Shown here: positions 14,231 through 45,832 of the stretch, piece after piece | Numbering within the stretch: the stretch's first letter is position 1 | Layout of the letters: each line of letters opens with the position of its first letter | From: an uncultured Thermoplasmatales archaeon | GTDB lineage: Archaea > Thermoplasmatota > E2 > UBA202 > DSCA01 | Direction of reading: 5' to 3' | NCBI GenBank assembly: GCA_964514975.1 | Contig: CAZESS010000016.1 | Coordinates: 1 to 54,505, forward strand | Length of the DNA: 54,505 nt | Translations under genes and position numbers: made by a program | The notes under the pieces: model-generated | What the model saw: only the letters and a program-made list of their open reading frames with translations | Told to the model about the DNA's origin: nothing | Databases searched by the model: none

Positions 14231-14320
14231 CCGGTTTTTTTCCACGGTGCAGCTACGCGCTAATCTCCTCGCTGCCCGGGGAGCGATGCTGCCTGTAATG
14301 CACCCTCAAAAAAAGAATGA

Positions 14321-14347
14321 TTTAAATAGGATAACCTCCTTTATAAA
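14321..14347 (+). promoter_or_regulatory. TATA-like boxes upstream of the first surface-protein gene
   Basis: TTTAAATA (14321) and TTTATAAA (14340) precede the ATG at 14373. Confidence 0.5.
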
Positions 14348-14372
14348 AAATAGGATATAGGGAGACGTTAAC

Positions 14373-17300
14373 ATGACCCAAAAAAACATGTGTTTTAAAC
14401 GAAGTATTGTAGCGATAGCCGGGATAATCGGAGTTGTGGCCCTGCTCGCCATCGTCGGGCAGGCTCAGGCGGCCACCCACTATGTCGACCCCGGCGACAG
14501 CATCCAGGACGCCATCAACGCCGCCAGCGACGGAGACAACATCATCGTCAACGACTCGACATACACCGAAAACATTATCGTCAACCAGACAGGGCTGGCC
14601 ATCCAGTCCAACAACGGCAGCGTCAGCTGTATCGTCGATGCCGGCGGCGCCATCGGGATAAACATCACGGTGAACAACACCCTCGTTGAGGGATTCACGG
14701 TGCGCAACGGCTCCCGCGGCATATCCGTTCACAACGATTCCTTCACCGTCAAGAACGTCACGATAGACAACTGTACCATATACAATTGTACCTATGACTT
14801 CGGGTACGGCATTTATTGTGACGGCGTTACCGAAAGCACGATAAACAACACGCAGGTAAACGACACACGATCCGGTGTATATCTATCTTCAACGAGTTAC
14901 AGCAACATTACGGGCAACAACATCACCAGCAACTCTCAAGAAGGCATCCACCTCTATGAATCCGACAACAACAACATTACGGGCAACAACACCATATACA
15001 GCAACACCGCCCATGGCATATGGCTGTATAACTCCGACGGCAACAACATCTCGGGCAACAGCATTTACGACAACAGCAACGGAATCATGCTGTCCGGCAC
15101 CGGCAACGCCAACAACGATATTTACTACAACAATATATATGACAACACCGATGGCATTGATTCTACAAGCGGTCCTCCATCATCAACCATAAACGCCACC
15201 CGCAACTACTGGGGAGATGCACGCGGACCATATAATCCCACCACCAATCCATCGACAACCGGGGACAGCGTCATCGACGAGGTGGCATACTGCCCATGGC
15301 TGGACGCAGCACATCCCGGTGGGAGCCCGGTCGGCAAGGTCCAGAACACTAACACCGGGAATTATTTCTGCACCATACAGGATGCGATAGACGCCGCCGT
15401 GGATGGACACATCATCAAGGTAACCCCCGGGACATATGTCGAAAACCTTGTCATCAACAGGGAAATACAGCTCATCGGCGATCCAATTATCGACGGCGCC
15501 GGCGGGATAGCGATAACCGTGGAAACGAATAATACGCTCGTGGAGAACATGACCATCACCAACTGCTCCACGGGTATCTATGTACACAATGTATCCTTTA
15601 CCCTCCAAAACGTGACTTTGAACAACATCACCGTGGACACACTGCTTGGCCCAGTGGACAACGGCACCATCTTCGAGAATGTTAATAACAGCTGGATGAA
15701 CGACACCAGGATTTACAATGCAAGCTCCTTCGCCGCCATTCTCGACACATCCAGCAATATCACCATAGAGCAGAGCAACTGGTCACATAACAGCCATGGC
15801 GTATGGGCTAGTGGTTCCGATAATAACGTCATCCGCGACAATGGCCGATGCATAGACAACAATCAGTATGGTATCTATCTCATGGGAAGTGACGGCAACA
15901 GGATACGCAACACCGACTTCATGTCAAACACCATTTTCTACGGCATCTACCTGCAGGGGAGCGACAACAACATCATCGAAAACACCAACTGCAGCAACAA
16001 CGGCAAAGCAGGTATTTATGTCAGCGGCGGCTCTACCGGTAACCAGTTTTTAAACAATACGTTTTCATCCAATGGCGTAATGGATTTGAATGTGAGCAGC
16101 AGCCCCGGCAACACATTTACGAACAACACTGTTTCTTCATATCCCACCACCTTCGATGTCACCTCGTACAGCGGCAACTTCAACATAAGCGGCGTAGACA
16201 ACCCGCCGGCTATGCCGACAGGTGTAGGCAACATCTCCAAATTCCTGAATATCTCGCTTACAGGAGAATGGATCAATGTTACTATCTGCTATGAGGATGC
16301 CAATCTTGTCGAACCCTCCAACGAAGACACCATGGTCATCTGGAAACACAACGGCACCGGCCCGTTCAACGGCTGGCACAAGTACGGCAGCTGGTATGCG
16401 GACCGGGGCATCGACACCGTAGCAAACGAGACATGGGTGAACATCACCGACAGCGGCAGCGTGTTTGCCCCGCTACAGGACACCGAGGCACCACAGTCCT
16501 CATGTACCGTTGCCGGTCCATACTGGAACAACACGGGTGCGGTTACCGTCGAATGGGATGCCAGCGACAACGTCAACCTGTCAACGGTTCGCATCTATCT
16601 TCGCCATAGCCCCGACAACAGCTCGTTCGGGACCTGGCAGCTGTACACGACCATCCATGTCAATGGCACCTCTGCCAGCGGGTCACAGCATGTAAACCTC
16701 AACCATGGCGAGGGCGTCTACCAGTTCGTGACCAACGCTACCGACGACGCCGGCAACCATGAGGGCATTACCCCATATGACGACGAAATCGGCTACGACG
16801 ACACGCCGCCTGTAACCACGAAAATCGTTGGTTCTCCATCCTATGGCCCGGATAATTTGTGGGTGAACCTTTCCACCGATATCACGCTGTCCGCCATGGA
16901 TTTCAAGGACAATGCCAGCGGTGTGGCCGCGACCTACTACCGTATCTGGAACAGCGACGGTTGGCATCCCAACGCCACTGATGACTCCTATTGTACCAAC
17001 CAGAATATCACCGTGTACAACGGCACCCGCTATTTTGTCTATTACAACGCCAGCGTGGACTTTGGCCCCATCCAGTTCTGCGAGGAATGCGAGCATCAGA
17101 TCGAGTTCTATAGCGTCGACAATGCAACCAACGAAGAAACACCACACAACATTCAACCGCATAATGTCGACGACACGCCGCCAGAGGTAACCAAGGAGTA
17201 CGGACAGCAAAATTATGTTAACGGAACTGGCGCCCTGTTTATCACCAAGGACACGCCTATCTATCTCAATGCCACGGATCTGCCGGAGGCGCCCTGCAAC

Positions 17301-19973
17301 GTGAGCAGCTACCAGATATTCTACCGGGTGTGGAGCAGCACCTACGGCATGAGCAACTGGTATAATGGGGTGGAAAACGAGAGCGTGGAATTCAATATGA
17401 GCGACCTCGGATATGCCGACAACTGCACGCATTACATCGAATATTACGCCGTGGACGACCTCGGAAACAATTATACCGAACCATTAAATCAGACCGTGTA
17501 TGTTGACAACGTTGCACCTGATTTCAATGTCTCCGTGGGCAATCCTAACTGGACGGCGGCAGGACCCAACGCCTATTTTGTCACCAATCACACACCGGTA
17601 TGGATAAATGCCACAGACAACGGGACGGAGCCATGCATCGTTGAATCAGTTAACCTGACCGTCACCGTCGAATATGAAGGGGGGTTGATACACGATGAAT
17701 GGCAGTATGTGGAAGACGGCTGGGCGAGCATCTGCCTCAACCCGGCGGTACTCTTTGCGGACAACTGCACCCATTATGTCAACATCACCGCTGTCGACAA
17801 CCTGGGCAACACCGCCGTGCTCAACTACACCTTCTACGTGGACAACATAGCGCCGGATATTAACGAAACCCTTGGGGAACCACAGTACATAGTTGAGGGG
17901 GGTAGAGATATTCTCTCTGAAGATTTCGAGGGGACGTTCCCTCCGACAGAGTGGACAGTTATCAATAATGGTGGTAATTGTGTATGGCAAAGGAATGATG
18001 TCACAGGAAGAACCAATTATGCAGGAGGAAATGGATACTGTGCTGTTGCAGACTCCGACTGGTGTGGCTCCGGCACAACGATGGACACCGAATTATGGAC
18101 ACCATCATTCAGTTTGGCCGGATTTACCTCAGCGACATTGGAATTTATCGCATCATATAATTATCTCTCCGGTAGTGAGTACGCAGAGGTTGACATAAGT
18201 ACGGATGGAGGAAGCACATGGGCCAATTTACTCCACTGGGCTGAAGACCACGACGACTATGGGCCAGGCGAACTTGTTACACTTGATTTAACGCCATACG
18301 TTGGCAACAGCACCTGTATGATACGGTTCCACTATTATGCACCCGACTGGGACTGGTATTGGGAGATAGATGACGTTAATATTTCCGGTAAGAGACCTGG
18401 CGCGGGTACTTACATCACCAGCGACACGCCTATCTGGGTGAACGCGACGGATAATGGAACCACGCCCGAGTGCACTGTTAGCTCGGTGAACCTGACCGTT
18501 GACGTGTACTATCTCGACGGCGAGATACATACCTATCACTATGACAACGTGACCGATGGATGGGCGCAGATACTGTTCACCATCCCCGAGGACTGTGTCC
18601 ACTGGATAAACATCACCGCGATAGATGACCTAGGGAACACGGCCTGGCACAACCAGACCGTGTATGTTGACAACGTTGCGCCGGATTTCAATGTTACCGT
18701 TGGCAATCCTAACTGGACGGCTGGCCCGGATGCCTACTATGTCACCAATCATACGCCGGTGTGGATAAACGCGACCGACAACGGAACGGAGCCATGTATC
18801 GTTGGCTCGGTGAACCTGACCGTGACCATTGAATACCAGGGAATCGAGATATACAATGTCTCCGACTATGTCGAATACATGGGTGAATGGGCGCATGTGA
18901 TGCCGGACCCGGCGGACGTATTTGCGGACAACTGCACGCATTACATGAACATCACCGCCATCGACGATCTCGGCAACACCGCTCTCTACACTGTGGTGTT
19001 TTATGTGGACAACGTGGCGCCGGTTTCAGCAATAGAGCAGCCTGACCCGTATTGTCGGAATGTGACCGACAGCAATCCATTGCAGATAAACGGATCGGTG
19101 GTTGATTTGCCGGACAACGTGTGTGCGTCGGGCGTGTACAATGTGTCGTTGTGGTATCGGTATGCCCGCTACAATCATTCGTTCACCGACTGGATACACC
19201 TCGCCACAAATACGACGGAGGCAGATGACTGGCAGTATCTGTTTACGGCGCCCAACGGCTCCGGCTATTACCAGTTCTATACGGCTGCCTATGACAACCT
19301 GGGTAACCATGAGCTGCCGCCGAACGGGACATCGATGCCGAAGGCGCTGGTGAGCGTGTCCTACAATCATTCCTTCGACCTGTATTTCAATGCGACCAGG
19401 GATAAGGGATGGAACTGGATGACGCTGCCGGTGAAGCATCCTGATATACTGACGGCGAGCGATCTGGCCATGTATATCAACATGTTTGAGCCGGATGTCT
19501 GCAACATGATTTCTGTCTGGGATCCGGTGGGGCAGATGTATCGGACCTATGTGCATCCCTACAGCATGGGGACGGTGGATGATTTCGTGTTCGAGTATGG
19601 GCAGGGTTTCATGGTGCATGTCCGGGAGAACGTGACCGTGTACATGGAGGCCTGCCTGATCGAGTACGACGAGATCGGCTTCAGGTTGTATGATAGCTGG
19701 AACGTGGTCGGCTGGACCTGTCTCGAGAGTACGGACATGCGGCAGCTGGGCGAAAACGTCTCTGACACCCTGAAGCTGATGAGCTATGATGCGGTGCAGC
19801 AGTTGTACGGGCCGGCGTTTTTCCTTGATCCGCCTCCATGGGCGATGGGGCTGCCGCCAGAGTCCATAGCGATTGGTGAGGCAGTCTTTTTGATGCGGTA
19901 TGACCCGGATGATGCGGTGCCGTCGATGAGCTGGCAGGGCGGCCGCGAGTTCCTCGCACTGCCGCCGCCATAA
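14373..19973 (+). CDS. 1866-aa secreted surface glycoprotein: NosD/CASH-like beta-helices, Ig-like stalk repeats, one inserted cleaved-adhesin-like domain, C-terminal duplicated GWN-type domain
   Basis: Signal peptide; SIQDAINAA..GD and GIYL..S..N.I..N repeats; D(N/D)xxP-delimited Ig repeats; EDFEGTFPP...IDDVNI jelly-roll insert; GWNWMTLPV and LYDSWNVVGW; many N-x-S/T sequons. Confidence 0.85.
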   Translation: MTQKNMCFKRSIVAIAGIIGVVALLAIVGQAQAATHYVDPGDSIQDAINAASDGDNIIVNDSTYTENIIVNQTGLAIQSNNGSVSCIVDAGGAIGINITVNNTLVEGFTVRNGSRGISVHNDSFTVKNVTIDNCTIYNCTYDFGYGIYCDGVTESTINNTQVNDTRSGVYLSSTSYSNITGNNITSNSQEGIHLYESDNNNITGNNTIYSNTAHGIWLYNSDGNNISGNSIYDNSNGIMLSGTGNANNDIYYNNIYDNTDGIDSTSGPPSSTINATRNYWGDARGPYNPTTNPSTTGDSVIDEVAYCPWLDAAHPGGSPVGKVQNTNTGNYFCTIQDAIDAAVDGHIIKVTPGTYVENLVINREIQLIGDPIIDGAGGIAITVETNNTLVENMTITNCSTGIYVHNVSFTLQNVTLNNITVDTLLGPVDNGTIFENVNNSWMNDTRIYNASSFAAILDTSSNITIEQSNWSHNSHGVWASGSDNNVIRDNGRCIDNNQYGIYLMGSDGNRIRNTDFMSNTIFYGIYLQGSDNNIIENTNCSNNGKAGIYVSGGSTGNQFLNNTFSSNGVMDLNVSSSPGNTFTNNTVSSYPTTFDVTSYSGNFNISGVDNPPAMPTGVGNISKFLNISLTGEWINVTICYEDANLVEPSNEDTMVIWKHNGTGPFNGWHKYGSWYADRGIDTVANETWVNITDSGSVFAPLQDTEAPQSSCTVAGPYWNNTGAVTVEWDASDNVNLSTVRIYLRHSPDNSSFGTWQLYTTIHVNGTSASGSQHVNLNHGEGVYQFVTNATDDAGNHEGITPYDDEIGYDDTPPVTTKIVGSPSYGPDNLWVNLSTDITLSAMDFKDNASGVAATYYRIWNSDGWHPNATDDSYCTNQNITVYNGTRYFVYYNASVDFGPIQFCEECEHQIEFYSVDNATNEETPHNIQPHNVDDTPPEVTKEYGQQNYVNGTGALFITKDTPIYLNATDLPEAPCNVSSYQIFYRVWSSTYGMSNWYNGVENESVEFNMSDLGYADNCTHYIEYYAVDDLGNNYTEPLNQTVYVDNVAPDFNVSVGNPNWTAAGPNAYFVTNHTPVWINATDNGTEPCIVESVNLTVTVEYEGGLIHDEWQYVEDGWASICLNPAVLFADNCTHYVNITAVDNLGNTAVLNYTFYVDNIAPDINETLGEPQYIVEGGRDILSEDFEGTFPPTEWTVINNGGNCVWQRNDVTGRTNYAGGNGYCAVADSDWCGSGTTMDTELWTPSFSLAGFTSATLEFIASYNYLSGSEYAEVDISTDGGSTWANLLHWAEDHDDYGPGELVTLDLTPYVGNSTCMIRFHYYAPDWDWYWEIDDVNISGKRPGAGTYITSDTPIWVNATDNGTTPECTVSSVNLTVDVYYLDGEIHTYHYDNVTDGWAQILFTIPEDCVHWINITAIDDLGNTAWHNQTVYVDNVAPDFNVTVGNPNWTAGPDAYYVTNHTPVWINATDNGTEPCIVGSVNLTVTIEYQGIEIYNVSDYVEYMGEWAHVMPDPADVFADNCTHYMNITAIDDLGNTALYTVVFYVDNVAPVSAIEQPDPYCRNVTDSNPLQINGSVVDLPDNVCASGVYNVSLWYRYARYNHSFTDWIHLATNTTEADDWQYLFTAPNGSGYYQFYTAAYDNLGNHELPPNGTSMPKALVSVSYNHSFDLYFNATRDKGWNWMTLPVKHPDILTASDLAMYINMFEPDVCNMISVWDPVGQMYRTYVHPYSMGTVDDFVFEYGQGFMVHVRENVTVYMEACLIEYDEIGFRLYDSWNVVGWTCLESTDMRQLGENVSDTLKLMSYDAVQQLYGPAFFLDPPPWAMGLPPESIAIGEAVFLMRYDPDDAVPSMSWQGGREFLALPPP
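16809..17089 (+). repeat. High-identity repeat, copy 1 (copy 2 at 24799..25079)
   Basis: Ungapped alignment at offset 7990 with scattered substitutions; encodes the VTTKIVGSPSYGPD...DFGPI Ig domain. Confidence 0.9.
19035..19300 (+). repeat. 266-bp exact repeat, copy 1 (copy 2 at 25522..25787)
   Basis: By-eye comparison shows no mismatch from GAGCAGCCTGACCCG to ATGACAACCT; off-frame ORFs 19102.. and 25589.. translate identically over this span. Confidence 0.95.
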
Positions 19974-20018
19974 AACCCCCTTCTTCCCTCTTCTCCCCTC
20001 TCTTTTTCTCTTCTTTTG
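19974..20018 (+). terminator. Pyrimidine-rich terminator
   Basis: CCCCCTTCTTCCCTCTTCTCCCCTCTCTTTTTCTCTTCTTTT immediately after the stop. Confidence 0.6.
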
Positions 20019-20152
20019 ACAGCGGCAAGCCCGCCCGCTTTCAGCGATGCCATCGGTGTCTAACACGGCGACAGCAGAAAGACAAAAAATAACTATTAAC
20101 CGTCTGCAACGCAAGCTTTTCCCGGATAGAGCAATTTTTAAACTACACAAAA

Positions 20153-20160
20153 TTTAAATA
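20153..20160 (+). promoter_or_regulatory. TATA box
   Basis: TTTAAATA preceded by an A-rich BRE; GAGGAGG RBS before ATG 20197. Confidence 0.55.
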
Positions 20161-20196
20161 ATATATACCAAATTAATGGCCAGCGAGGAGGATAGA

Positions 20197-26457: not shown

Positions 26458-26536
26458 CCATCTCCCGTTCCATGTACGGGTGTTGACGCCTGGTGTAACA
26501 ATGGAGAACGGGATGGATGCCGCGGATGTAGGAATA

Positions 26537-26544
26537 TTTATAAA
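26537..26544 (+). promoter_or_regulatory. TATA box (probably a leaderless transcript)
   Basis: TTTATAAA ends 24 nt before ATG 26568. Confidence 0.5.
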
Positions 26545-26567
26545 CAATACTTCTGTTGTGAGCGACA

Positions 26568-27338: not shown

Positions 27339-27352
27339 ATGTATATATTGCG

Positions 27353-30877: not shown

Positions 30878-30990
30878 CAGCCGTGCTTTTTAGAAGGGCA
30901 CTCCAGAAAAATATAGAAATTTATTTAAAGAATGAGTATATTCCTTAATCTAACGAATATGCGGATGCATAAGAATAAGGAGGAATAAAA

Positions 30991-36900: not shown

Positions 36901-39900
36901 TTCCACTGTGATTACCTTGAACAGAACTACTGGAGCAGCGGCCTGCTCATCGACGACGTCTGGGTCGGCGGCATCGAGCACGTCGACTGGAAACTCGACG
37001 ACGATGTCGAGTCAGGCCAGGGCGGCTGGACTGTTGACGACCTGACCGTCGACGGCAGCATGTGGCGACAGGTAGACCGCATCCCGGTGTATGATACCGA
37101 CCCGCCGCAGCCGTCCATGTGGTGCGGCGACCCCGCACTTGACAACGGCGACTACGGCTTAGGCCAGTACGGCTGCAACTGGGATGATGTGCTGATGCTG
37201 ACGGAGCCGATAAACATGTCCGATGCCGACCCCGGCGACAATGTATGGCTGGACTTCTGGTTCTGGCTGAACTCCGAATGCTGCGACGATATGTTCATTG
37301 TTGAAGTTACGAACGACAGCAGCGACTGGGCGAACGCGAGCATCGTGTACACGTGGTCAGGGGATTTCACCTCCTGGCAGCAGGAACAAATACTGCTCTC
37401 TGACTTCATCGGCAACGACACCGTCTACATCCGCTTCCGATTCGTCAGCGACGACCATCCCACGGCGGACAACGGCGTGTTCCTCGACAACGTCAGCGTC
37501 TACAACTCAACGATGGATTTCATTCCCATCCAGACGTTTGACAACCCATGGAACAACTGGACCGCGATGATGCTTGAGACCTCCAAATGGCACATCGTGG
37601 ACACCCAGTCTCATTCACCGGACCATTCTTGGTGGAATGGTGACGACGACACGGATATGTACCTCAACTGCATGAACGACGCACTGGTTTCACCGGTCAT
37701 CAACCTGACCGGGGAGGCCTACGAGGAGGCGATGCTCACCTTCTGGCACTGGCGTGACATGTACACCTATGACCACGGCTACGTGGAAATACGCGAGTGC
37801 AACGGTGGCACCTGGTCCGGCTGGAGCACCATGGAAACATACAGCTACCAGCGTGGCTGGGTCCAGGAATTCGTGGACATCACCGACGAGGTTGGCCATC
37901 CGGACCAGATACAGATCCGGTTCCGGTTCTACAGCAACACCGATACCGTTGACCCCGGCTGGTATCTCGACGACTTCCGCGTCGAGTTGCGGAACATCAC
38001 CGGCACCAACCTCACAGAGGACTTCGAGAAAACCTTCCCGCCAACCGGCTGGATGGAAGACGGCAACTATGAGACCAGCCACTATTATGGATGGAATCGT
38101 TACCTTGGCACCGACTACAGCTATGCGGCTGTCCACGCGCACAACAGCTACAACCAGGATGAATGGCTCATCAGCCCGCTCATAGAGAACCTGCCCAAGT
38201 TCTCCAACCTGACCTTCGAGCACCACCGTGACGGCTCCGCGACAACCCGGCTGTACATCTCCACCGACAACGGCAGCACCTGGACACATCTGGAGACCTA
38301 CACGGGCACAATCAGCGGCATCGTCGAGGACGAGGACCTCTGGGGCTACCACGGTCAGGATATCAGACTGGCCTGGCGGTTCACCTCGCCCTCGGGCGAC
38401 GGAACCAGTCCCTACGACGACTACTGGGCCATCGAATGGGCCGAGGTCACCTCAATCGGCTTCCTCCGCGAAGGAGCGCCCATCAACCTGCAGGCATACG
38501 ACCGGCCCGTGAACAGCACATGTGACGCGGGCGTCAGCGCCATCTACTGGCGGTATAGCTGGGATGGCGATGATGACCTCGGCGATGGCGATGCATATGT
38601 GTGGGGCGACGACATACCCGGTATCGCCTCCTCGAACGAGGAGATAGCCGACTATTACTGGTGGAAGATCATGGACAACGGCGAATTCGACGACGATGAC
38701 AGGCAGGGCTACATCGAGGTCAACATCAGCCTCGAAGGCGAGTGCATCCACGACGTCTACTACTTCGCAAAGGACATCCTCTGCCACAGCAGCGAGCTGC
38801 ACGAGGAAACCTATTACGTGGACGGCAGCGCGCCCGACACCTATCTCAACATATCCTGGGGCTCGAATGGTACCCATCCATGGATACCGAAGAACAGCGG
38901 CGGCAGAAACGGCGACGGCGACGGCGACAGACCTACCCAGGGAGACGGGCATGAGCCCATGGACTACTGGTACGCGCCCGGCGAGGACAAGCCCGACGTC
39001 ATCTGCATCCAGGACGACTTCCACTTCTACGCCAATCACACCCACAGCGGCACAGAGCCGTGCATCTATCCGTACAACCATCAGAACAACACGTTCTTCA
39101 GATGGAGATGGTGGAACCCCGAGACCGAGAAATACGAGTTCTGGCCATCGGCGGACAACGCAGACGCCATCAACGGCAGCACCATCACCGTCTCCGAGAA
39201 CGAGGATTACATCCAGTGGAACGACGACTCGTCCTTCTGGATAGACAAGTCGGTCGCTAACTGGGATACCACCTGGGATGACTACATTGAAAACTACTAC
39301 GGCGGCTACATCCAATGGATGCCCTACATGTATCCGGATGAGGAGTTCTTCGAGCAGGGCTGCAACCACACGCTCTACTACTTCAGCAAGGACGACCTCT
39401 GCAACACCGAGATGCCCGTTGAATGGGATGTCGGCGTTGACGACGAGGCACCGGAAACAGAATTCGATATAAACGTGACCACTGGCTGCAAATACTATGA
39501 CGAGGCCGACAACACCTGGTACTTCCAGGACTGCAGCTGGGTGAACATCAACGCCACCGACATGCCGAACAACACCGAATGCAGAACCGGCATCTGGTAC
39601 ATGGACTACACCATCTGGAAATGGAACGCGACCCAGGAAGACATCAACATATGGAAGAGAACGCTGCCGACCCCGTCCAATCCAACAACGGTGTACGTCG
39701 GTACATCCCCGAAGGGCAGCATGACCGACGCCATCGACAACGACGATGACGGCAACCTCAGCTACGGCGACTATGTCCACATCGACTTCGACAGCTCGGT
39801 CAACCTCTCCGACGGCTGGTACTACATATCATGGATGAACATCGACATGCCGTACACCCTGACCGTGCGCGACATCTACAGCGGTGCCGGCGGCTGGGAT

Positions 39901-41829
39901 GTCCTGGTGCCATGGAGCCGCGTCTACGCGAACGACACCAGCGGCCTGCCCACCGGCATCACTGTCGACGGCGGCGCCGACGCAAACTACAACTGGATGC
40001 AGCTCAACATCCACCTCGGCGACCTCAACCCCGGCGACTTCAACTGCGGCAAATACGAGATACACTGGAAGGTCTACGACTACAACAACAGAACCATCGG
40101 CGAACGCAAGCAGGATGTCGCCATCGACTGCACCGACCCGCGCACCTCCAAGGAATTCGGCGAGCCAGTCGTCGAGCAGGAGATATCCGGCGGCGAGATC
40201 ATCCACTGGGTAAATCCCGCCACGACGAAGATATGGCTCAACGGCACCGAGGACTACCGCTGGGACAGCGGCGTCGCAGAGACCTGGTATCGCTTCTGGG
40301 AGGAACAGCCAATCCTGGTCTGGAAGCTCAACAATGCCACCTTCGAGCAGCCAAACTATCCAGGTGTCATGTCCGACAGCAAGCACTGGTTCACCATCGA
40401 CGAAGCAGCACAGATAATGGGCTACGCTGACGCCGAGGACTATTTCGCCAGCAACCCGAATGTCAACGAAAGCAGATGCATCGTCGAGCTATACCACTGG
40501 TCAAAGGACCGTGTCTGCCACGTGGAAGACGGCATGGAAACCAAGCAGCACATCTACGTCGACTTCCAGCCGCCGACCTCACACGTGGAAGAAATCGTGC
40601 CCTACCAGCGGGAGGACGTGCCCATCAACCTGACGGTCACCGACATCATGGACCACGGCTGCGAGGACTCCGGTCCCGTCGGCGTCTGCGAGGTCGAGCT
40701 CTACTACCGCCACAGCACCGACAACGAAACCTACGGCGACTGGTACCTCTACGACACCCTTGACGTGCCATGGGCCGACAGACACGACGTCCCCGACTGG
40801 GATGTTGACTTCGACGCGTCCGCAGGACCCGGCTGGTACCAGTTCAAATCAGTGGCATACGACTGCGTTGAAAACCAGGAGCAGCCACCGTTCGAGCAGG
40901 GAGAATACGACGCGGAATGCGTGCTTGTCGCAGACATGGAGCCACCGGTCATCGAAAAAGAGGACGGCCAGCCCATGGTCCAGCAGACGATCGGCGACGA
41001 GCCCATCTACGTGCTGACCTGGGACACACCCATCTATGTCAACGTCACCGACCAGCCCGACGCGGCCAATGCATCAGGTGTCAACGAGCTCAAGATAGCC
41101 TTCACCACACCCGGTGACACGCCGGGCTCTGGCGACTGGATACCCGTCGACATGTCAGAATGGGACATCATCGAGGCAGGCGACTCCGGCCACTACAAGA
41201 TCGGCTACACGTTCACGCCCGCCGAATACAGCAGCTATATCGACAACGAAACCATCTACCATCTGTATGTCTACGCCGCCGACATGTACGGCCACGAGGT
41301 CGACGAGAAGACCCAGAAGTTCATGATCGACGACACCGCCCCGACGACAACCATCGACGTCAACTGCACCGGCGACATGCCCTTTGACGTGGAAGCCACG
41401 GCGAGCGACGCCATCGTCGACGTCCAGGAGATAACGCTCTACTACCGCTACAGCCCCGACAACGAAACCAACTGGACGGCATGGACGGCATATGACACCA
41501 TCGCGGGCGACAGCCACACCTGGTCGTTCTCAACCGACGACGGCTACGGCTACTACCAGTTCTATGTGTACGCCGAAGACGAGCTCGGCAACCACAAGCC
41601 CATGCCAACAGATACCTACGAGGCCTGGTGCCACGTGCCGGCACCTCCCGAAGACCTCAACGGCGACGGACGGGTCAGCACCGCCGACATCCTACTGGTT
41701 CTCGACTACTGGGGCGAAACCGGAAGTCCGGGCTGGATACCCGAGGATCTCAGCGGTCCGGAAGGAACACCCGACGGAACGATAAACATCTTCGACGTGC
41801 TGGCCATTCTCGACGAATGGACAGGCTGA
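30991..41829 (+). CDS. 3612-aa giant acidic secreted protein: ~14 Ig-like stalk repeats, multiple inserted jelly-roll (cleaved-adhesin/immune-inhibitor-A-like) domains, C-terminal dockerin-like module
   Basis: Signal peptide (KKKGIAIVIAASLLAMAG); recurring D-x-x-x-P ... EC-x-H-x-x-Y repeats; WLISP/GWYLDD jelly-roll motifs; EDLNGDGRVSTADILLVLDYWG...EDLSGPEGTPDGTINIFDVLAILDEW. Alternative start 31021. Confidence 0.88.
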   Translation: MSKAPNGKDIMNKKKGIAIVIAASLLAMAGAFILSVDTEAGETTPLTITGYVYDTDGTTPVSGATVTIRDQDTGAWGTNTSNATGFFKVDMRTVPSDMPWSEWFIGDQLYGVATDGTMDGVNTTMTTDPNGLHWMNFTLGTPATTKTVGAPEHLKYNYDTGSANRGYLVSPEIHLGGPTATLSFYTWWQIESSNPVDNDLMNVYLSTTGGYLDGTEVNLTEQQDSINPGTNPAGGGPHSFLTPAGLNTMPGSWDSMTYDLTDWVGENVTIIFEFDTVDGVYNYWEGWYLDDIRIGSYGTFFDDVENGVGNWSYNGLWHIDDRRSYSASHAWYYGMEHSYVTEETLFNMAATGNYTNITYDIWYNQTGWQGPFNYTEPFNLTGECKHYIEFFADNASYNDEPLRNQTHYVDMSPPTSTMELGSPNATLEYEGENFSTIRTCTPMWINATDEVAGIEECASGVEWLNYTVWRNEVPNDYELIETVSIHDNDENDMDKRPGFISAELHFDEECFHEIKWDVEDYVGHRADQQSIDISVDGTAPTIEKTIGEPKYVGLGNYGAINWTWVNCSTNFTFHVTDSGCGGGIGVEEFGMKIYWNETRVPQGDVQDFTLIETIVVHDGGPQDLDGEENGEILYNYSFNQECFHEPEMWAVDEVGNEYKFKEKDMVDCTPPAIRKDVDKVVAYEQTEMNNASDIGYGGEWQRFQAPWSYMDAVQIHLCGTFYEGVTVQVYDNLSHNPLRTATLDIADVPVNESDYFCGWLQLHLDERLYTEHNASYWLHVTYGGTSGMVYWNASDNDPYPWGNGTIGGRPNWNDSRDYTFKIEYYPVVLDDMTPTLLDYMFAEYNETGDYDYLHESWVTTEAFFNLSSWDEGCMDGVGLDTLEYRVWWNGTWTEWMNYTEPFNFTEECVHYIEIRATDLLGNTRIVNQTHYVDDSPPELQVQYPDVHGFYKENDTGKQFVRANKTFYLNLTDMPEEPCAVGTKNFTFYWRYEYTNFTAPLIETHPADGGDNEYPGELVYAKGHWWWKLTQPEDRSIALNFTRECQHTIYYWYEASDWLDNEVETDVQEEVIYVDEHYPEMQKEHPDCYDTVNANDTIYVHPSEELGIDSPWTTPSYPNSWMSTADWTEFYPEHGREYLGVDDEPHFDGFISNGNDIVDDCDYIELYDVEYGVYRLYHVENLTVTLEIYNDTLDEVKYVDFVSYWDGYWPADSDFAEIESSPIGTLWKEMHADFGTMYNLTAYESQNGFSSATITLNNTATGEWHNWTVMDATWDLVLDPVPFIQKCAKIDLTANDTPQILKLVDQFQNEGARADELQLKDNIPYWPWDAQRFMVTENVTHINEIWLYLNWSGPSNVSIYLHNHTDPESFTPGQEIAQANATLTGADDGWVKFMFDDPVPVDSTTTYVIDAFRKPNSAQVQWIHSENSSYLNGYATISGEDVTDGDWKFSVVAYRENPCASGIEDIYYGYEFNGTYHPMDMEDNESTYGDIVNISKYYDDVEIEEEFGGRYLWYTYDPAKGVHFHEECIHWLYYWTKDNVCHHTDVHRQVYHVDEYNPVVYKEHPDHGYSAPVEISVEERFDNASDAYEGEFHVRNKWYSSSTYPDGWLRNPSGQNIYKDQSIDLTITNHDLNNDLTLTIRVEEVVGDEGITLENGSDVNQKTYTVFVPAGGSNVLTIPVYDYRIFLEWGVWHWEVVSMENITQYLRAGAKINLTADDPGYCASGVQGIYYRYEWNDTMYPQTSHPAAVDGSTLSGEPEIANYWWYLYNDSEDITFSEECVHDLYYFAKDRSCHNSTLHHQVYHVDDSAPVVEEELPDHGAIGNTTQSLWEGFYLPVGNGWATVNDTGSGSTHSYWDLHTDEPYFDYHDLTNAYKGDYDALAWTDTDGSADSWLISPKVAIPEDGNLSFWYATYRTSSYDASFKVAVNNVSTQTDTSAFTTVWDSGPFGDNTYRKTEIDLSAYAGQEVYIGFHCDYLEQNYWSSGLLIDDVWVGGIEHVDWKLDDDVESGQGGWTVDDLTVDGSMWRQVDRIPVYDTDPPQPSMWCGDPALDNGDYGLGQYGCNWDDVLMLTEPINMSDADPGDNVWLDFWFWLNSECCDDMFIVEVTNDSSDWANASIVYTWSGDFTSWQQEQILLSDFIGNDTVYIRFRFVSDDHPTADNGVFLDNVSVYNSTMDFIPIQTFDNPWNNWTAMMLETSKWHIVDTQSHSPDHSWWNGDDDTDMYLNCMNDALVSPVINLTGEAYEEAMLTFWHWRDMYTYDHGYVEIRECNGGTWSGWSTMETYSYQRGWVQEFVDITDEVGHPDQIQIRFRFYSNTDTVDPGWYLDDFRVELRNITGTNLTEDFEKTFPPTGWMEDGNYETSHYYGWNRYLGTDYSYAAVHAHNSYNQDEWLISPLIENLPKFSNLTFEHHRDGSATTRLYISTDNGSTWTHLETYTGTISGIVEDEDLWGYHGQDIRLAWRFTSPSGDGTSPYDDYWAIEWAEVTSIGFLREGAPINLQAYDRPVNSTCDAGVSAIYWRYSWDGDDDLGDGDAYVWGDDIPGIASSNEEIADYYWWKIMDNGEFDDDDRQGYIEVNISLEGECIHDVYYFAKDILCHSSELHEETYYVDGSAPDTYLNISWGSNGTHPWIPKNSGGRNGDGDGDRPTQGDGHEPMDYWYAPGEDKPDVICIQDDFHFYANHTHSGTEPCIYPYNHQNNTFFRWRWWNPETEKYEFWPSADNADAINGSTITVSENEDYIQWNDDSSFWIDKSVANWDTTWDDYIENYYGGYIQWMPYMYPDEEFFEQGCNHTLYYFSKDDLCNTEMPVEWDVGVDDEAPETEFDINVTTGCKYYDEADNTWYFQDCSWVNINATDMPNNTECRTGIWYMDYTIWKWNATQEDINIWKRTLPTPSNPTTVYVGTSPKGSMTDAIDNDDDGNLSYGDYVHIDFDSSVNLSDGWYYISWMNIDMPYTLTVRDIYSGAGGWDVLVPWSRVYANDTSGLPTGITVDGGADANYNWMQLNIHLGDLNPGDFNCGKYEIHWKVYDYNNRTIGERKQDVAIDCTDPRTSKEFGEPVVEQEISGGEIIHWVNPATTKIWLNGTEDYRWDSGVAETWYRFWEEQPILVWKLNNATFEQPNYPGVMSDSKHWFTIDEAAQIMGYADAEDYFASNPNVNESRCIVELYHWSKDRVCHVEDGMETKQHIYVDFQPPTSHVEEIVPYQREDVPINLTVTDIMDHGCEDSGPVGVCEVELYYRHSTDNETYGDWYLYDTLDVPWADRHDVPDWDVDFDASAGPGWYQFKSVAYDCVENQEQPPFEQGEYDAECVLVADMEPPVIEKEDGQPMVQQTIGDEPIYVLTWDTPIYVNVTDQPDAANASGVNELKIAFTTPGDTPGSGDWIPVDMSEWDIIEAGDSGHYKIGYTFTPAEYSSYIDNETIYHLYVYAADMYGHEVDEKTQKFMIDDTAPTTTIDVNCTGDMPFDVEATASDAIVDVQEITLYYRYSPDNETNWTAWTAYDTIAGDSHTWSFSTDDGYGYYQFYVYAEDELGNHKPMPTDTYEAWCHVPAPPEDLNGDGRVSTADILLVLDYWGETGSPGWIPEDLSGPEGTPDGTINIFDVLAILDEWTG

Positions 41830-41848
41830 AATATCTGAGGTGATAACC

Positions 41849-44800
41849 ATGAACGCTACAAGGAAAACAGTGATTGCGGCCCTCCTCCTCTCTTTCCTCT
41901 TTGCAGCAGCAGCCCCGGCCGTGCACTCGGAGAACGGAGCCATATCAGCCACGAATGCTTCCATGACCCTCATGCCCGAACAGGACGCCGTCTACAGCGG
42001 GGAAACGTTCAACGTGAGCGTGTGGATACAGGCCGACAACGTGAGCACCGCCCAGGCACGGATAGGATTCAACGAATCCATATTCCATGTCACCAATGTC
42101 GCCCTGGCAAACACGAGTCTCAACATGTTTCTGCAGCCAGGGGCAGGCATCAACAGCACCGGCATCGACAACGACAAGGGCATCGTGGGCGACATCGTCG
42201 GGTTTGCAACCCCGCCGGTAAACGCATCTGACGGGATGAAAATAGCGACCATCACCTTCGAGGTTATCGCACCTGGCGGGTACACCTCTCTGATACATTT
42301 CATAGAGGCGAACTCCGAAATAGACAGCTACGATGTGGACTACCATAATGCCACCATGAAGGCCAACCCGGTTGACGTCACCATCGAGCCGTCACATCGG
42401 CTCATCGGCAACACGGCCACCACATACAACGTCAACATAACCCCGAACGGAAACCAGATCAGAGCGATGAACTTTACGCCTGCATATGACCCGACATCCC
42501 TCGACATCACAGACGTGACAGCCGACGGTCTGTTCCCGATTGTTACATACAATGCGACCAAAAACGTCGTGTTAGCGTTCCATCCAACCAGCACGTTCAC
42601 CACAAATGGCACGGCAGCTATCATCCACTGCACGCCCCTGCAGAGCGGCATGAGCACCATAACCCTCACGGACTTCACCATCGTCGGAAACAATACCATG
42701 CTCCCCGTCAACCTGGAGCAGCCGGAGGCAACGCTTGAAGCAGACATCGACCCGCCCAATGTTACCATGGAGGTCGGGCAGCCACGCATGGACCCCATCG
42801 ACCTGACCAACAATACCTACGGCATCCGCGCACATCTCTATGAAAGCGGCGCCTTCACGATGTACACGGCGCCGGGCGACCTGTCGCTCCTGTACCCGGG
42901 TGAAACGGGCCACCAGACAATCAGGGTCGACGGCACCAACTACTCAACCATGGGCAACCTGAGCACCCATGTCACCACGCCGCTGACCCAGACAGGCCCC
43001 AACACAGCACATATCGAATACACCCTCCCGGAGAACATCAAGGTGCGGTTTGACTTCCAGCTCATACACAACGCCACCAAGTTCACCATCACCACCGAAA
43101 ACATGGACGACGAAGCACACCAGATAGGCGTGAAATGGTACTATGATACGCAGGTCGCAGACAACGACGGAGCACCCATCTACATCCCCGGCCAGGGCGT
43201 CCAGACCCATGAAAAAACCTACTACAACCCAGCCTTCGAATACTTCTCCGGGTATGACCAGCTCGTCGACCCCACGCTGGTGTCCACCGGATGGATATCA
43301 CCATCGAAGGGTGCCACCACGCCCGACGTGGTCATGCTCAGCTACTGGCCCGACTCAGCCGGACAGGAATGGTGGTACGAGACCGACCCCACGTATGATT
43401 TCACGTCCGACAGCGCCGTCGCCCTGTTCTGGAACGAGACCACCGTCGCGCCATCTGCATCACGAGACATCGTGACCTTCTACGGCATCGGGGAGCCCTT
43501 GGCAACCGGCAACTACAGCATCGTGGACATCTACCTCGATGACCCCACCGGCGAATACCAGGCCGGCGAAACGGCAACCATAAGCGTTGACACCGTGGCC
43601 GCCGGGCAGGCATTCTCCGGCTCCGTCCGCCTGATTGTATCCAATGATGGCACAGAATATTTCAACCAGAGCGCATCGGTATCCATGGACGCAGGTGGAA
43701 TCACCACCACGACATTCGACATGACGGTTCCGAGTCTCTCCGACGAATACCTGGATGTCACAGCGACACTGTACAACCAGACCATTCCCGACATCGACAG
43801 CAGAACAGAAGAAAACATCATGCATGTATCATCGGGTGCTGCCTCCGCTGTCACCGACATAGCTGCAGACAAGCCAACCTACACCGTCAACGAAACAGCG
43901 ACCATTAGCGTCGACGCAGAGGCAACGGGACAGGCTTTCACCGGCTCCGTCCGCCTCATCGTTTCCCACGACGGCACGGAATACCTGAACACCACCCATC
44001 CGGTGTCCATCAACGCCGGCGGTGTCAACACCACGACCTTCAGCCTTGACATCCCCGACCTCCCGGGACAATATCTCGATGCTCATGCAACACTGTACAA
44101 CGACACGGGCGCCGTTGCTGATACACGGATAGAGGACAATCTCCTGTTCATCAGCTCCTACCAGAAAACCTTCTACTACGTGACCAGTGGAACGCCGCTC
44201 TACATCAACGCCACCGATGCCCACAACTTCACCATCGACTACCGCATCTGGAACGGAACCTGGCATGCATACAACGCAACGGACAACGTCACCTTCGACC
44301 TGTCCGGCCATGTCACAGAGGGACAGAAGACCTATTACGTGGAATACACCGCGACAGACGAGTTTGGCAACACCGCGGCAACCGGCAACCAGACCCTGTA
44401 TCTCGATGACACCCCGCCCACGACCACCGCCACCAGGCATCCGGCGACGCCCGACGGCGACAACGGCTGGTACGTCAGCGACGTCATCGTCAACCTGACC
44501 GCAGATGACGGCGACGGAAGCGGCGTCAGCCGCACCTACTATTCCACCGGCAGCCAGTTCCCGCAGCCCTACGACGGCAACATCACCCTCGAGGCAGATG
44601 GCACGCACACCCTCACCTACTATTCCACTGACAACCTCGGGAACACCGAGGGCGACCAGCAGCTCACCGTCAACATCGACCAGACCAGGCCCGAAGTCGA
44701 CCTCACCGCAACCGGCACCCAGAACAACGGATGGTACACGTCCAGCGTCGACGTCACCCTCGAGGCCGATGATACGACATCCGGCGTGGCCGGCATCTGG

Positions 44801-45832
44801 TATCGCATTAACGATGGCGACTGGACAGCCTACGACGAGCCGTTCACCCTGTCAACCGACGGAACCCACACCATCGACTACTACGCGCACGACAGCGCCG
44901 GCAACAACGCATCGGGTAGCGCAACCATCAGGATAGACACCACGAATCCCTCGGCGTCGATATCGCTGTCAGGCCCCCAATCGGGCGGCGTATACACCGG
45001 CACGGTCACCATATCGCTGTCCGGCACCGACACAGGGTCCGGCATAGCGAGCCTGAAATACCGCGTCAACGGTGGCTCATGGAGCACCAGCGGCTCATCG
45101 ACCTCGTTCACCCAGACAGCCGACGGCAGCTACACCGTTGAATGCTACGCGGTCGACACCGCGGGCAACCAGGGCTCGACGACGAGCAGGTCGTTCGAGA
45201 TTCTCAAAAACCAGAAGCCAACAGCCGCCTTTTCCACCTCGCCCGACGACCCGACAGATGTTGACTCGATAACGTTCAACGCGTCCGCTTCAACCGACAG
45301 CGACGGCTCCATCGTCAGCTACACATGGGACTTCGGCGATGGTGATACCGGCACTGGAAAAACAGCCAGCCATACCTATGACGACAACGGCACCTACACC
45401 GTCACCCTGACCGTGACCGACGACAAGGGCGCAACCGATACCGCCACCAAGCAGCTCACCGTGGCCAACAGCCCGCCCGATGCGGTCATCCAGACCACTC
45501 CGACCGACAAGGCGAAGATAGACGAGGAGATAACGTTCACCTCGCTTTCCAGCGACGAAGGCGGAGAGATCGTCAACTACACATGGAACTTCGGTGACGG
45601 AAACATGAGCTACACGGAAAATGCGACTCACAGCTACGACGAGGCAGACGACTACACGGTCACCCTGACCGTAACCGACGATGACGGGGCCACGGACACC
45701 GCCCAGGTGACGCTCACCATAGAGGAGGAGCAGCCCGACTACCTGCTGCCAATCCTCGCGATCATCGTGCTGGTGATCATCGCGGTCATCGTGGTGCTCG
45801 TCTGGCGCCGCAGGAGCATGGGCAGCGAATAA
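41849..45832 (+). CDS. Membrane-anchored scaffoldin-like protein: two N-terminal cohesin-like modules, Ig repeats, two PKD domains, C-terminal TM helix
   Basis: RBS GAGGTGA within the 19-nt gap after the upstream stop; GETFNVSVWI..AQARIGFNESIFHVTNV..IATITFEVI and YNVNI..MNFTPAYDPTSLDITDV..GTAAIIHCTPLQSG; PKD YTWDFGDG/YTWNFGDG; LLPILAIIVLVIIAVIVVLVWRRR. Confidence 0.82.
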   Translation: MNATRKTVIAALLLSFLFAAAAPAVHSENGAISATNASMTLMPEQDAVYSGETFNVSVWIQADNVSTAQARIGFNESIFHVTNVALANTSLNMFLQPGAGINSTGIDNDKGIVGDIVGFATPPVNASDGMKIATITFEVIAPGGYTSLIHFIEANSEIDSYDVDYHNATMKANPVDVTIEPSHRLIGNTATTYNVNITPNGNQIRAMNFTPAYDPTSLDITDVTADGLFPIVTYNATKNVVLAFHPTSTFTTNGTAAIIHCTPLQSGMSTITLTDFTIVGNNTMLPVNLEQPEATLEADIDPPNVTMEVGQPRMDPIDLTNNTYGIRAHLYESGAFTMYTAPGDLSLLYPGETGHQTIRVDGTNYSTMGNLSTHVTTPLTQTGPNTAHIEYTLPENIKVRFDFQLIHNATKFTITTENMDDEAHQIGVKWYYDTQVADNDGAPIYIPGQGVQTHEKTYYNPAFEYFSGYDQLVDPTLVSTGWISPSKGATTPDVVMLSYWPDSAGQEWWYETDPTYDFTSDSAVALFWNETTVAPSASRDIVTFYGIGEPLATGNYSIVDIYLDDPTGEYQAGETATISVDTVAAGQAFSGSVRLIVSNDGTEYFNQSASVSMDAGGITTTTFDMTVPSLSDEYLDVTATLYNQTIPDIDSRTEENIMHVSSGAASAVTDIAADKPTYTVNETATISVDAEATGQAFTGSVRLIVSHDGTEYLNTTHPVSINAGGVNTTTFSLDIPDLPGQYLDAHATLYNDTGAVADTRIEDNLLFISSYQKTFYYVTSGTPLYINATDAHNFTIDYRIWNGTWHAYNATDNVTFDLSGHVTEGQKTYYVEYTATDEFGNTAATGNQTLYLDDTPPTTTATRHPATPDGDNGWYVSDVIVNLTADDGDGSGVSRTYYSTGSQFPQPYDGNITLEADGTHTLTYYSTDNLGNTEGDQQLTVNIDQTRPEVDLTATGTQNNGWYTSSVDVTLEADDTTSGVAGIWYRINDGDWTAYDEPFTLSTDGTHTIDYYAHDSAGNNASGSATIRIDTTNPSASISLSGPQSGGVYTGTVTISLSGTDTGSGIASLKYRVNGGSWSTSGSSTSFTQTADGSYTVECYAVDTAGNQGSTTSRSFEILKNQKPTAAFSTSPDDPTDVDSITFNASASTDSDGSIVSYTWDFGDGDTGTGKTASHTYDDNGTYTVTLTVTDDKGATDTATKQLTVANSPPDAVIQTTPTDKAKIDEEITFTSLSSDEGGEIVNYTWNFGDGNMSYTENATHSYDEADDYTVTLTVTDDDGATDTAQVTLTIEEEQPDYLLPILAIIVLVIIAVIVVLVWRRRSMGSE

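Follow-up and report, generated by a model that had tools for sequence, protein, structure and literature searches.

Ig-like repeats apparently split by changing passenger domains in giant surface proteins of an uncultured Thermoplasmata-type archaeon

Results

Three proteins encoded in the window, gA, gE, and gF, share one building block, a divergent OmpL47-type Ig-like repeat. The window is the whole stretch of DNA that was analysed (54,505 nucleotides), and its source is an uncultured Thermoplasmata-type archaeon. All features given with coordinates here are on the + strand. gA (14373..19973, 1866 aa) has a signal peptide, two NosD-type beta-helix regions, seven Ig-like repeats, one of which is split, and a C-terminal tail. 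gE (30991..41829, 3612 aa) has a signal/TM segment, a prealbumin-like domain, 14 host repeats, and a probable C-terminal dockerin. gF (41840..45832, 1330 aa) has a signal peptide, two cohesin-like modules, a split host repeat, three OmpL47-type repeats, two PKD domains, and a C-terminal transmembrane anchor. An earlier note on this DNA spoke of a filament, but these are single polypeptides, and nothing points to polymerisation.

Certain single copies of the repeat begin with a short N-terminal strand segment (N-part), which complete foreign domains, 130 to 670 residues in all, separate from the remainder (C-part). This sequence architecture is well established. An HMM trained on seven empty copies gave 42 domain matches in seven neighbouring proteins (domain E <= 0.01), and at least 43 ORFs of the genome match it. 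Full-length copies have E values of 1e-27 to 1e-34. Insert-bearing copies align to the HMM only from about position 15-57 onward, and the missing positions are found before the insert. Empty repeats have a hairpin of 7-13 residues that links the N-part to its own B strand. Aligning the stalk repeats, as the earlier note had envisaged, placed the gA passenger of ~168 residues between the two expected flanks: 14 empty-repeat rows match the N-part before it and the B strand after it (alignment A2). With a strict motif, the spacing from G-x-P to the B strand is 9-10 residues in three empty gA copies, compared with 176 and 464 in the filled copies of gA and gF; it is 14 in gD.

ORFs, translations, and HMM thus agree with the earlier proposal of a repeat that takes up passenger domains in a loop, and the insert coordinates given then hold within a few codons. 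The strings at which the host was said to resume are all present (YITSDTPIW at gA aa 1347, YVTEETLF and FLREGAPIN at gE aa 339 and 2491, YVTSGTPLY at gF aa 780). The proposed stalk consensus fits the gA-type copies, but the gE copies are degenerate; they are missed by the literal motif and found by the HMM only.

Relatives of the host repeat are the OmpL47-type family NF047446 and Leptospira OmpL47 (NF047441). Against NF047446 (cut-off 40 bits), gF scores 165.7 bits in three stretches, and gA scores 44.8 bits as a whole protein, with no single stretch passing alone. gE is under the cut-off at 30.8 bits, and its repeats are related only via our own HMM. The B strand is the first element of the curated profile, which is silent on inserts. 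A sequence search for a solved relative of the host repeat found none, its one match having an E value of 0.28.

The split repeat of gA carries a jelly roll of the choice-of-anchor J / cleaved-adhesin-like / MAM-like type. Its N-part (17838..17900, aa 1156-1176), delimited by alignment and model, comprises strand A and the first half of the hairpin. The passenger follows (17901..18404, aa 1177-1344), and then the C-part (18405..18665, aa 1345-1431), with the return strand and strands B to G. The C-part matches HMM positions 28-116 (E 1.1e-19). For comparison with the earlier insert coordinates, the passenger was delimited slightly more narrowly, at aa 1178-1340 (17904-18392). The passenger scores 47.5 bits on profile positions 2-162 of choice-of-anchor J NF038128 (cut-off 30). 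In fold it matches the gingipain cleaved-adhesin structure 4itc_A (Z 16.7, rmsd 2.5, 149 aligned residues, 25% identity, model range 136..298), and the next matches are reelin and MAM domains. The Cleaved_Adhesin likeness is one of fold only, as Pfam gave no sequence match to that family at E <= 0.1.

Five of the host repeats of gE (r1, r4, r6, r7, and r8) are split by domains. r1 (31411..32214, aa 141-408) has an N-part (aa 141-154), passenger p1 (aa 155-335), and a C-part (aa 336-408). p1 is choice-of-anchor J-like, perhaps with a circular permutation: its BLASTP segments are in permuted order, and it scores 38.1 bits against NF038128 on profile positions 50-162 only (cut-off 30) and 37.4 bits against PF20773. 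It is conserved in four orthologs. r8 (36403..38820, aa 1805-2610) holds four tandem choice-of-anchor J domains, p8a-d (aa 1822-2488), between its N-part (aa 1805-1821) and C-part (aa 2489-2610), and gE as a whole scores 132.6 bits against NF038128 in four stretches. The cut-off of this profile is passed by the gA passenger, p1, and p8a-d. r7 (35647..36402, aa 1553-1804) has an N-part (aa 1553-1569), passenger p7, an MG/Ig-like beta sandwich of 131 residues (aa 1570-1700), and a C-part (aa 1701-1804). The repeat and its passenger are conserved in nine matches from eight relatives.

r6 (34210..35646, aa 1074-1552) is split twice. Its N-part leads into p6a (aa 1090-1275), which is followed by the B strand (aa 1276-1292); p6b (aa 1293-1452) occupies the B-C loop, and the C-part is aa 1453-1552. 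p6b scores 21.0 bits against DUF4082 PF13313 (cut-off 28.4) and 24.9 bits against choice-of-anchor R NF041539 (cut-off 30), both under the cut-offs. r4 (32989..33783, aa 667-931) has an N-part (aa 667-682), passenger p4 (aa 683-829), a return segment of ~30 aa, and a C-part. Family scans gave no significant match for p4, with choice-of-anchor R at only 12.8 bits, and its DUF4082-like assignment comes from alignment with p6b-type passengers. At best p6b, p4, and the corresponding passenger of a same-genus gA ortholog (genome G004) would be relatives of DUF4082 / choice-of-anchor R. At curated cut-offs no family was found for p4, p6a, p7, or the first gF passenger domain.

The boundaries of split repeats do not always appear clean. 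In r4 the segment between passenger and B strand is matched by the HMM as a second N-part, and it is not conserved in orthologs. The N-part of r4 is conserved in the four orthologs aligned, and the r4 ortholog of genome G035 has an extra MAM-like passenger in that slot without the return segment. Of the other repeats, r9 (38821..39435, aa 2611-2815) carries low-complexity sequence (roughly 25-45 aa) in loop 1, and r10 has extra length in a later loop, in the later part of the domain. The inserts listed in the earlier note were all found; its list lacked these two features and p6b.

The split repeat of gF has an N-part (42740..42787, aa 301-316) that aligns with the N-part of seven orthologs. 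The passenger block (42788..44173, aa 317-778) consists of a ~240-aa domain without a family and two CARDB/A2M_BRD-like domains (CARDB 27.2 bits, A2M_BRD 28.8 bits), and the same genome encodes another surface protein with an N-terminal head 30% identical to this block. The C-part (44174..44404, aa 779-855) matches HMM positions 24-116. The slot is empty in all seven orthologs (7-aa loop), two of which are syntenic, and the C-part is 48-52% identical to their repeat.

Models support co-folding of the flanks into one Ig domain in gE r7, the one socket read out, in line with what the earlier note had supposed. The AlphaFold2 model of r7 has a mean pLDDT of 85.2. Among its best 50 PDB matches, 25 lie on the passenger only (model residues 23-28 to 154-157), 23 are single Ig/PKD/FN3-type domains that bridge the passenger, and two are mixed. 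The bridging matches start at residue 3-12, end at residue 260-270, and have 76-104 aligned residues; examples are 4u7k_A (Z 6.7, rmsd 2.5, 83/86 residues) and 4xed_A (Z 6.2, 87/97). Their Z scores of 5.9-6.8 are middling, and the ranges give the first and last aligned residue only.

In the gA model (mean pLDDT 87.7), strands E120-125 and E129-141 of the N-part have pLDDT of about 90, and the split repeat shows the same strand series as the adjacent empty repeat. The long strands 129-141 and 287-306 are unbroken over the host-passenger boundary, which structural matching places at 136..298. Strand continuity and pLDDT, rather than contacts, suggest that the gA flanks pair. The AlphaFold2 alignments for both gA and r7 include empty repeats that span the insert, which tilts the models towards nesting.

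Slot polymorphism among orthologs is established, and it comprises the insertion, loss, and exchange of passengers at loops of the host repeat. In up to eight orthologs of gE, the lengths of r2, r8, and r10-r14 are constant (r8 is 781-821 aa in the six orthologs measured), while r3 (127-212 aa), r4 (258-572), r5 (138-304), r6 (422-698), r7 (250-401), and r9 (147-378) vary. The insertion points behind these differences were checked by alignment. All differences in the r9 loop fall at one point: G030 and G019 have it empty, G003 has ~135 aa more, and G023 has ~215 aa more. Across relatives, the loop of a single orthologous repeat comes in four states: it is just 5 aa long in L006, whereas it carries a domain of choice-of-anchor J type in L011, a divergent jelly roll in L019, and a DUF4082-like domain in L021.

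Comparison of gA with its G004 ortholog gives an exchange within a genus. The C-part is identical at 70/86 positions (81%) and the next repeat at 80/87 (92%), compared with 28/127 in the passenger. The gA passenger is choice-of-anchor J, whereas that of G004 is DUF4082-like at 27.4 bits, which is under the DUF4082 and choice-of-anchor R cut-offs. A slot left empty by gA carries a further 166 MAM-like residues in G004. Diversification was earlier ascribed to cassette insertion rather than end-to-end addition. Cassettes do turn over, but whole repeats are gained or lost too, and the paralogs gA and gB are three whole repeats apart (1503 nt).

At least three loops are in use, and not one and the same loop as first proposed. 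The tip of the first hairpin serves as the main slot, alongside the B-C loop and a later loop. B-C loop passengers are found in gE r6, in L014 (twice), and in the r7 orthologs of G035 and G002 but not in the other nine aligned. These passengers lie unambiguously within the host fold. The later loop is filled in repeat 3 of G019 and G013. Other proteins (L013, L015-L018, and Chloroflexota L001-L005) carry passengers of the same type in plain tandem, and the passengers appear to be movable modules.

Discussion

With a probability of about 80%, these proteins have a shaft of Ig-like domains, some of them split to carry passengers, with slots that change over evolution. The chain would form the first strand and half of the hairpin, exit to fold one to four passenger domains, re-enter beside the exit point, and then finish the Ig fold. 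The passengers would be choice-of-anchor J / MAM-like jelly rolls, DUF4082-like domains, an MG-like sandwich, and CARDB domains. The shaft would be continuous, with passengers held off axis and perhaps projecting sideways. Slots could gain, lose, or swap passengers over evolution, so that the binding repertoire shifts and the shaft is not rebuilt. The passengers are probably ligand- or glycan-binding modules.

An unlikely alternative is that the N-part completes the preceding domain or swaps between neighbours, with the passenger between two strand-stapled domains. Because the preceding Ig domain was not part of the r7 construct, nothing in that model could compete for the N-part, and the gA model, which includes the preceding domain, was read from strand continuity and pLDDT. 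However, the preceding empty repeat in the gA model already has a full strand series with its own N-part strand (E8-13 to E105-114), which is repeated in the split repeat, and the short hairpin of empty repeats ties the N-part to its own B strand. Unlikely, too, are plain tandem 'beads on a string', in which V-D-x-x-x-P is a linker after every domain and the passengers are ordinary serial domains. The tandem occurrence of the same passenger types in other proteins would fit this, as would the apparent second N-part after p4 and the start of the curated NF047446 profile at the B strand without the N-part (gF 966-1029 on profile positions 1-65). Against it stand the first 15-57 HMM positions, present before the insert and absent after it, and the structural matches that span the r7 passenger. 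Strands A and B precede the B-C loop inserts and strands C to G follow them, and the ortholog indels are exactly bounded by N-part and B strand, which also argues against serial domains. Assembly or gene-calling artefacts in repeat-rich metagenome bins are a highly improbable source of the apparent inserts and presence/absence differences: all genomes are MAGs, with many short contigs that break off within these genes, but reading frames are open over every junction, six genomes assembled independently (L044-L049) share a colinear gE architecture, and the empty gF slot recurs in seven independent orthologs.

The split-domain shaft favoured here is a design already known in bacteria, and the present case is an archaeal, non-RTX variant of it. 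Gram-negative RTX adhesins with Ig-like 'split domains' include A. hydrophila AhLap, V. cholerae FrhA, and M. primoryensis MpIBP (PMC12077191, PMC10865825, PMC5550230). One account describes ligand-binding domains projected from Ig-like split domains that are exited after the first strand (PMC12077191). Common to both systems are an Ig-like shaft domain exited after its first strand, a complete domain folded there, and a host fold finished on return. Lectin-like beta-sandwiches are among the passengers, and extender domains are the rest of the shaft. In gE r7 an Ig-like host is likewise predicted to be interrupted and its fold completed later, and the strand series of the gA model suggests the same. 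Passenger termini that lie side by side are a further RTX trait, and in the gA model the two long strands, which may pair, cross the boundary.

There are also differences from the RTX adhesins. No RTX family is present among the Pfam/NCBIfam matches (E <= 0.01) of gA, gB, gD, gE, gF, and gG. RTX repeats or a type I secretion signal were not found in these proteins, which have Sec-type signal peptides and dockerin, cohesin, or membrane anchors; they end in a dockerin, an unnamed tail, or a TM anchor. The proteins are archaeal, and the host is a divergent OmpL47-type repeat. The RTX slots are described as lying only near the distal end, whereas here they occur along the whole protein, in at least three loops, and with up to four passengers per slot. 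Passengers of the same type are known from choice-of-anchor J NF038128, the gingipain cleaved-adhesin domain (4itc), and MAM, but here they are nested inside another domain.

Among the titles and abstracts searched, no description of archaeal split domains was found. Split domains currently serve to mark the ligand-binding modules of bacterial RTX adhesins. The occurrence of the design with another host fold and another anchoring system, in archaea, would make it a general way of decorating a rigid shaft. In the many giant archaeal surface proteins that lack annotation, it would also provide a simple rule to locate the functional parts, which probably bind ligands. The ortholog series, in which a slot can be empty, filled, or differently filled at >80% flank identity, is a natural experiment on domain-insertion tolerance and on the evolution of surface specificity in uncultured sediment archaea.

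Recombination may be the mechanism of passenger exchange. A more tentative idea, which we consider possible but rather doubtful, is that the slots are cassette-exchange hot spots, in which the conserved coding sequences of N-part and B strand, present many times in the genome, would serve as recombination arms. In this way binding modules would pass from one paralogous surface protein to another and from species to species, and choice-of-anchor J would have crossed the bacteria-archaea boundary; the module is 55-62% identical to Chloroflexota proteins. If this is true, these archaea would own a rapidly re-programmable surface-binding repertoire, seen as the within-genus swap at 81-92% flank identity.

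Cohesin-dockerin contacts probably keep the proteins on the cell surface: gD and probably gE end in dockerins, and gF combines cohesin modules with a membrane anchor. This resembles cohesin-dockerin scaffoldin systems of the cellulosome-like kind, except that here there are no attached glycoside hydrolases, and the proteins that would be docked are giant shaft proteins. Residues 1-316 of gF score 29.3 bits against Cohesin PF00963 in two stretches (cut-off 24.1). Against dockerin PF00404 (cut-off 22.9), gD scores 39 bits and gE only 17 bits; the probable gE dockerin (41626..41826, aa 3546-3612) has two Ca-loop segments, both conserved in five orthologs and in gD. The C-terminal tail of gA (about 220 aa) is common to gB.

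Giant proteins and their host repeat

Very large secreted proteins are encoded in a row on the plus strand of the window, and some of their Ig-like repeats appear to hold whole domains inside the repeat fold. The genes are gA (14373-19973, 1866 aa), gB (20176-26457, 2093 aa), gD (27329-30877, 1182 aa), gE (30991-41829, 3612 aa), gF (41840-45832, 1330 aa), and gG (45941-48286, 781 aa). NosD-type beta-helices form the N-terminal parts of gA and gB, dockerins form the C-termini of gD and gE, and gF has cohesin-like modules at its start and a transmembrane helix at its end. A hidden Markov model (HMM) of the host repeat, made from seven empty copies (those with a short loop), has 42 domain hits (domain E <= 0.01) in seven neighbouring proteins of the window. 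The nearest NCBIfam family is the OmpL47-type beta-barrel domain, with 165.7 bits for gF, 44.8 bits for gA (cut-off 40), and 30.8 bits, under the cut-off, for gE. An empty repeat searched by sequence against the PDB gave a single chance-level hit (E 0.28).

An empty copy consists of an N-part (V-D-x-x-x-P, a strand, and G-x-P-x-Y/W), a loop of about 7-13 residues at the tip of the first hairpin (loop 1), the B strand, and the remaining domain. The B strand of gA-type copies reads T-P-I-W-x-N-A-T-D. The motif written out in the earlier note describes these copies literally and fails for gE, whose copies are degenerate. N-x-S/T sequons are dense, with 99 in gA and 108 in gE. The N-A-T conserved in the B-strand motif of gA-type repeats (for example, aa 1079-1081) forms an N-glycosylation sequon in its own right, and a glycan may therefore adjoin the slot. 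The source organism is an archaeon, and Thermoplasmata MAGs contain the best named relatives of the host repeat. In the source genome (G000) the repeat HMM matches 43 ORFs of at least 300 aa. Counting split repeats genome-wide from the HMM start position proved unreliable, as partial matches come from other Ig types.

Passenger domains

Inserted passengers separate the N-part of the host repeat from its B strand. The split repeat of gA spans aa 1156-1431, with 176 residues between N-part and B strand, and past the insert the match to the repeat HMM begins no earlier than position 28. In gE, whose copies are numbered r1 to r14, an insert likewise parts the N-part from the B strand in r1, r4, r7, and r8, and r6 is split twice. 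In gF 464 residues lie between the N-part motif and the B-strand motif. The insert coordinates proposed earlier were accurate to within a few codons.

The passengers are of several types. The gA passenger and four gE passengers (p8a-d) are choice-of-anchor J domains scoring above cut-off, and p1, the passenger of gE r1, has a partial match to this family (38.1 bits, profile positions 50-162 only). Passenger p6b has a weak likeness to DUF4082 and choice-of-anchor R, under the cut-offs, and p4, which by itself hits no family significantly, is of the p6b type by alignment with other passengers. By fold, p7 is an MG/Ig-like sandwich. The gF block consists of one unnamed domain and two CARDB-like domains, and family scans assigned p6a to no family. 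Pfam scans of the passengers for inteins found no Hint-type family at E <= 1. The jelly-roll of p1 (window 31453-31995, aa 155-335) is apparently circularly permuted: its residues 19-145 match residues 62-161 of p8c (E 3e-05), and 168-185 match 30-47 (E 0.001). A narrow passenger HMM from an alignment of repeats around the gA split unit, meant to test this permutation, was overly specific and of no use.

The GC content of the gA passenger is 0.476, the lowest of the segments measured, compared with 0.53-0.54 in its flanks, a weak hint of recent arrival. Passengers of gE and gF have the same GC content as their hosts. The gA passenger (17904-18392) is 51-62% identical to domains in Chloroflexota/Anaerolineae MAG proteins (L001-L005), where they lie between PKD domains, and many archaeal copies are no closer to it. 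The likeness may reflect transfer between bacteria and archaea. On a larger scale, GC content is 0.47-0.54 at window positions 8000-26000, versus about 0.62-0.64 in the flanks. This low-GC stretch takes in gA, gB, a 553-aa multi-pass membrane ORF (9575-11236), and a pilin-like ORF (9025-9444), whose N-terminus has the look of a class III (prepilin-type) signal peptide.

Folding of the split repeats

Structure models are consistent with the segments on either side of a passenger forming one Ig-like domain. For gA, aa 1043-1445, comprising one empty and one split repeat, were folded with 31 aligned rows (mean pLDDT 87.7). The series of strands in the split repeat equals that of the empty one, and long strands at model residues 129-141 and 287-306 cross the host-passenger boundary, so that the flanks are predicted to pair. 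A wide PDB fold search with this model returned the passenger in all 50 best rows, and the split Ig domain was never aligned alone. For the passenger (model residues 136-298), the top match is the K1 cleaved-adhesin domain of Lys-gingipain (4itc_A; Z 16.7, rmsd 2.5 over 149 aligned residues), with reelin, MAM, and carbohydrate-binding modules coming next; the earlier label of this passenger, cleaved-adhesin-like, is thus correct by fold.

The check proposed in the earlier note, a predicted structure of an insert-bearing repeat, supports co-folding for gE r7. This repeat (aa 1545-1815) was folded by itself, with the preceding domain outside the construct, using 23 rows (mean pLDDT 85.2). The best 50 rows of a wide PDB search comprise 25 matches to the passenger only, 23 to single Ig/PKD/FN3-type domains, and two mixed. 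The 23 Ig/PKD/FN3-type rows (Z 5.9-6.8) align 76-104 residues over ranges, given as end points only, from model residue 3-12 to 260-270, leaving out the 131-residue passenger; the alignment behind the model included empty repeats that bridge the insert.

Plain tandem arrangement was the first reading of gE r4, from an HMM match to a second N-part after p4. It was dropped because the segment after p4 is not conserved in orthologs, and the one in genome G035 returns straight to the B strand. The curated profile NF047446 begins at the B strand and was therefore set aside as evidence for counting the N-part within the domain.

Insertion also occurs at other loops. In L014, a homolog from genome G021, a choice-of-anchor J domain with 72% identity to that of gA follows the N-x-T-D that closes the B strand and precedes the C strand, an arrangement found twice. 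Passenger p6b of gE r6 occupies the same B-C site, and r7 orthologs in G035 and G002 carry a further domain there, DUF4082-like and about 150 residues long, which is absent in the other nine aligned r7 orthologs. In G019 and G013 a later loop of repeat 3 is longer by about 80 residues. A single loop shared by all passengers, as first proposed, is therefore not borne out. However the domain is defined, the B-C inserts fall within its fold, and the case for domain insertion thus holds whichever way the N-part is interpreted.

Variation among orthologs

Orthologous slots differ in whether they are filled and with what. The gF slot is a 7-residue loop in all seven orthologs found (G016, G028, G038, G035, G030, G037, and G034), compared with about 460 residues in gF. 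Complete gF orthologs have 876-885 aa, and a gE ortholog adjoins two of the gF orthologs. Another surface protein encoded in the source genome has an N-terminal head, in plain tandem arrangement, that shares 30% identity with the first part of the gF block. Between gA and an ortholog of the same genus (L052 in G004), the C-part is identical at 70 of 86 positions and the following repeat at 80 of 87, while the passengers align at just 28 of 127. The G004 passenger is DUF4082-like (27.4 bits, slightly under cut-off) instead of choice-of-anchor J. The repeat after the split unit is empty in gA and has 166 extra residues in G004, with an InhA-like MAM match (29.3 bits). The content of one orthologous repeat varies among relatives: L006 has it empty, L011 has a choice-of-anchor J-type domain, L019 a divergent jelly roll, and L021 a DUF4082-like domain.

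Host-repeat unit lengths of gE were measured in up to eight orthologs, one of which, L051 (G026), is colinear with gE only in part. Lengths are 121-126 aa for r2 in six of seven orthologs (214 in L051), 127-212 for r3, 258-572 for r4, 138-304 for r5, 422-698 for r6, 250-401 for r7 (585 in L051), 781-821 for r8 (134 in L051), and 147-378 for r9; r10-r14 are unchanged wherever found. Ortholog alignments locate the differences in r4, r5, and r9 at loop 1. In the r9 ortholog L046 (G023:C21) the slot passenger has about 215 residues and by eye is unlike a beta sandwich; it may be an alpha/beta domain.

Comparison with known adhesins

The archaeal host repeats match the design of split domains in bacterial RTX adhesins. 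The chain of an RTX adhesin exits an Ig-like domain after the first strand, a ligand-binding domain folds, and the host fold is then finished, which keeps the binding site off the shaft axis (PMC12077191; split domains are also treated in PMC10865825 and PMC5550230). Neither RTX repeats nor a type I secretion signal appear among the Pfam and NCBIfam matches of the window's giant proteins, which places these proteins outside the RTX family. Among literature judged by title or abstract, no paper on archaeal split-domain adhesins was found. The split-domain design was already known, and the proteins of the window would be an archaeal, non-RTX variant of it. By analogy, the passengers would be binding modules projecting from a continuous shaft, probably anchored through cohesin-dockerin pairing. 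Docking of gF aa 30-305 with gE aa 3540-3612 and two Ca gave scores of 0.01 and 0.12 (mark 0.32), which is evidence neither way.

Gain and loss of whole repeats

Entire repeats have also been gained or lost. gA and gB are paralogs, with colinear 3' parts (18650-19966 and 25137-26453) that are 73-90% identical in DNA and include a C-terminal tail of about 220 aa without a family. Between two common anchors gA exceeds gB by 1503 nt, or three repeats. Cassette insertion, which had been proposed in place of end-to-end addition, is upheld as a process and is therefore one mode of diversification among others. Further giants with the host repeat are encoded in the source genome, all on the minus strand: proteins of 4629 aa with 22 repeat hits (G000:C15:6085-19971), 2389 aa (G000:C7:44292-51458), and 3115 aa (G000:C7:54080-63424).
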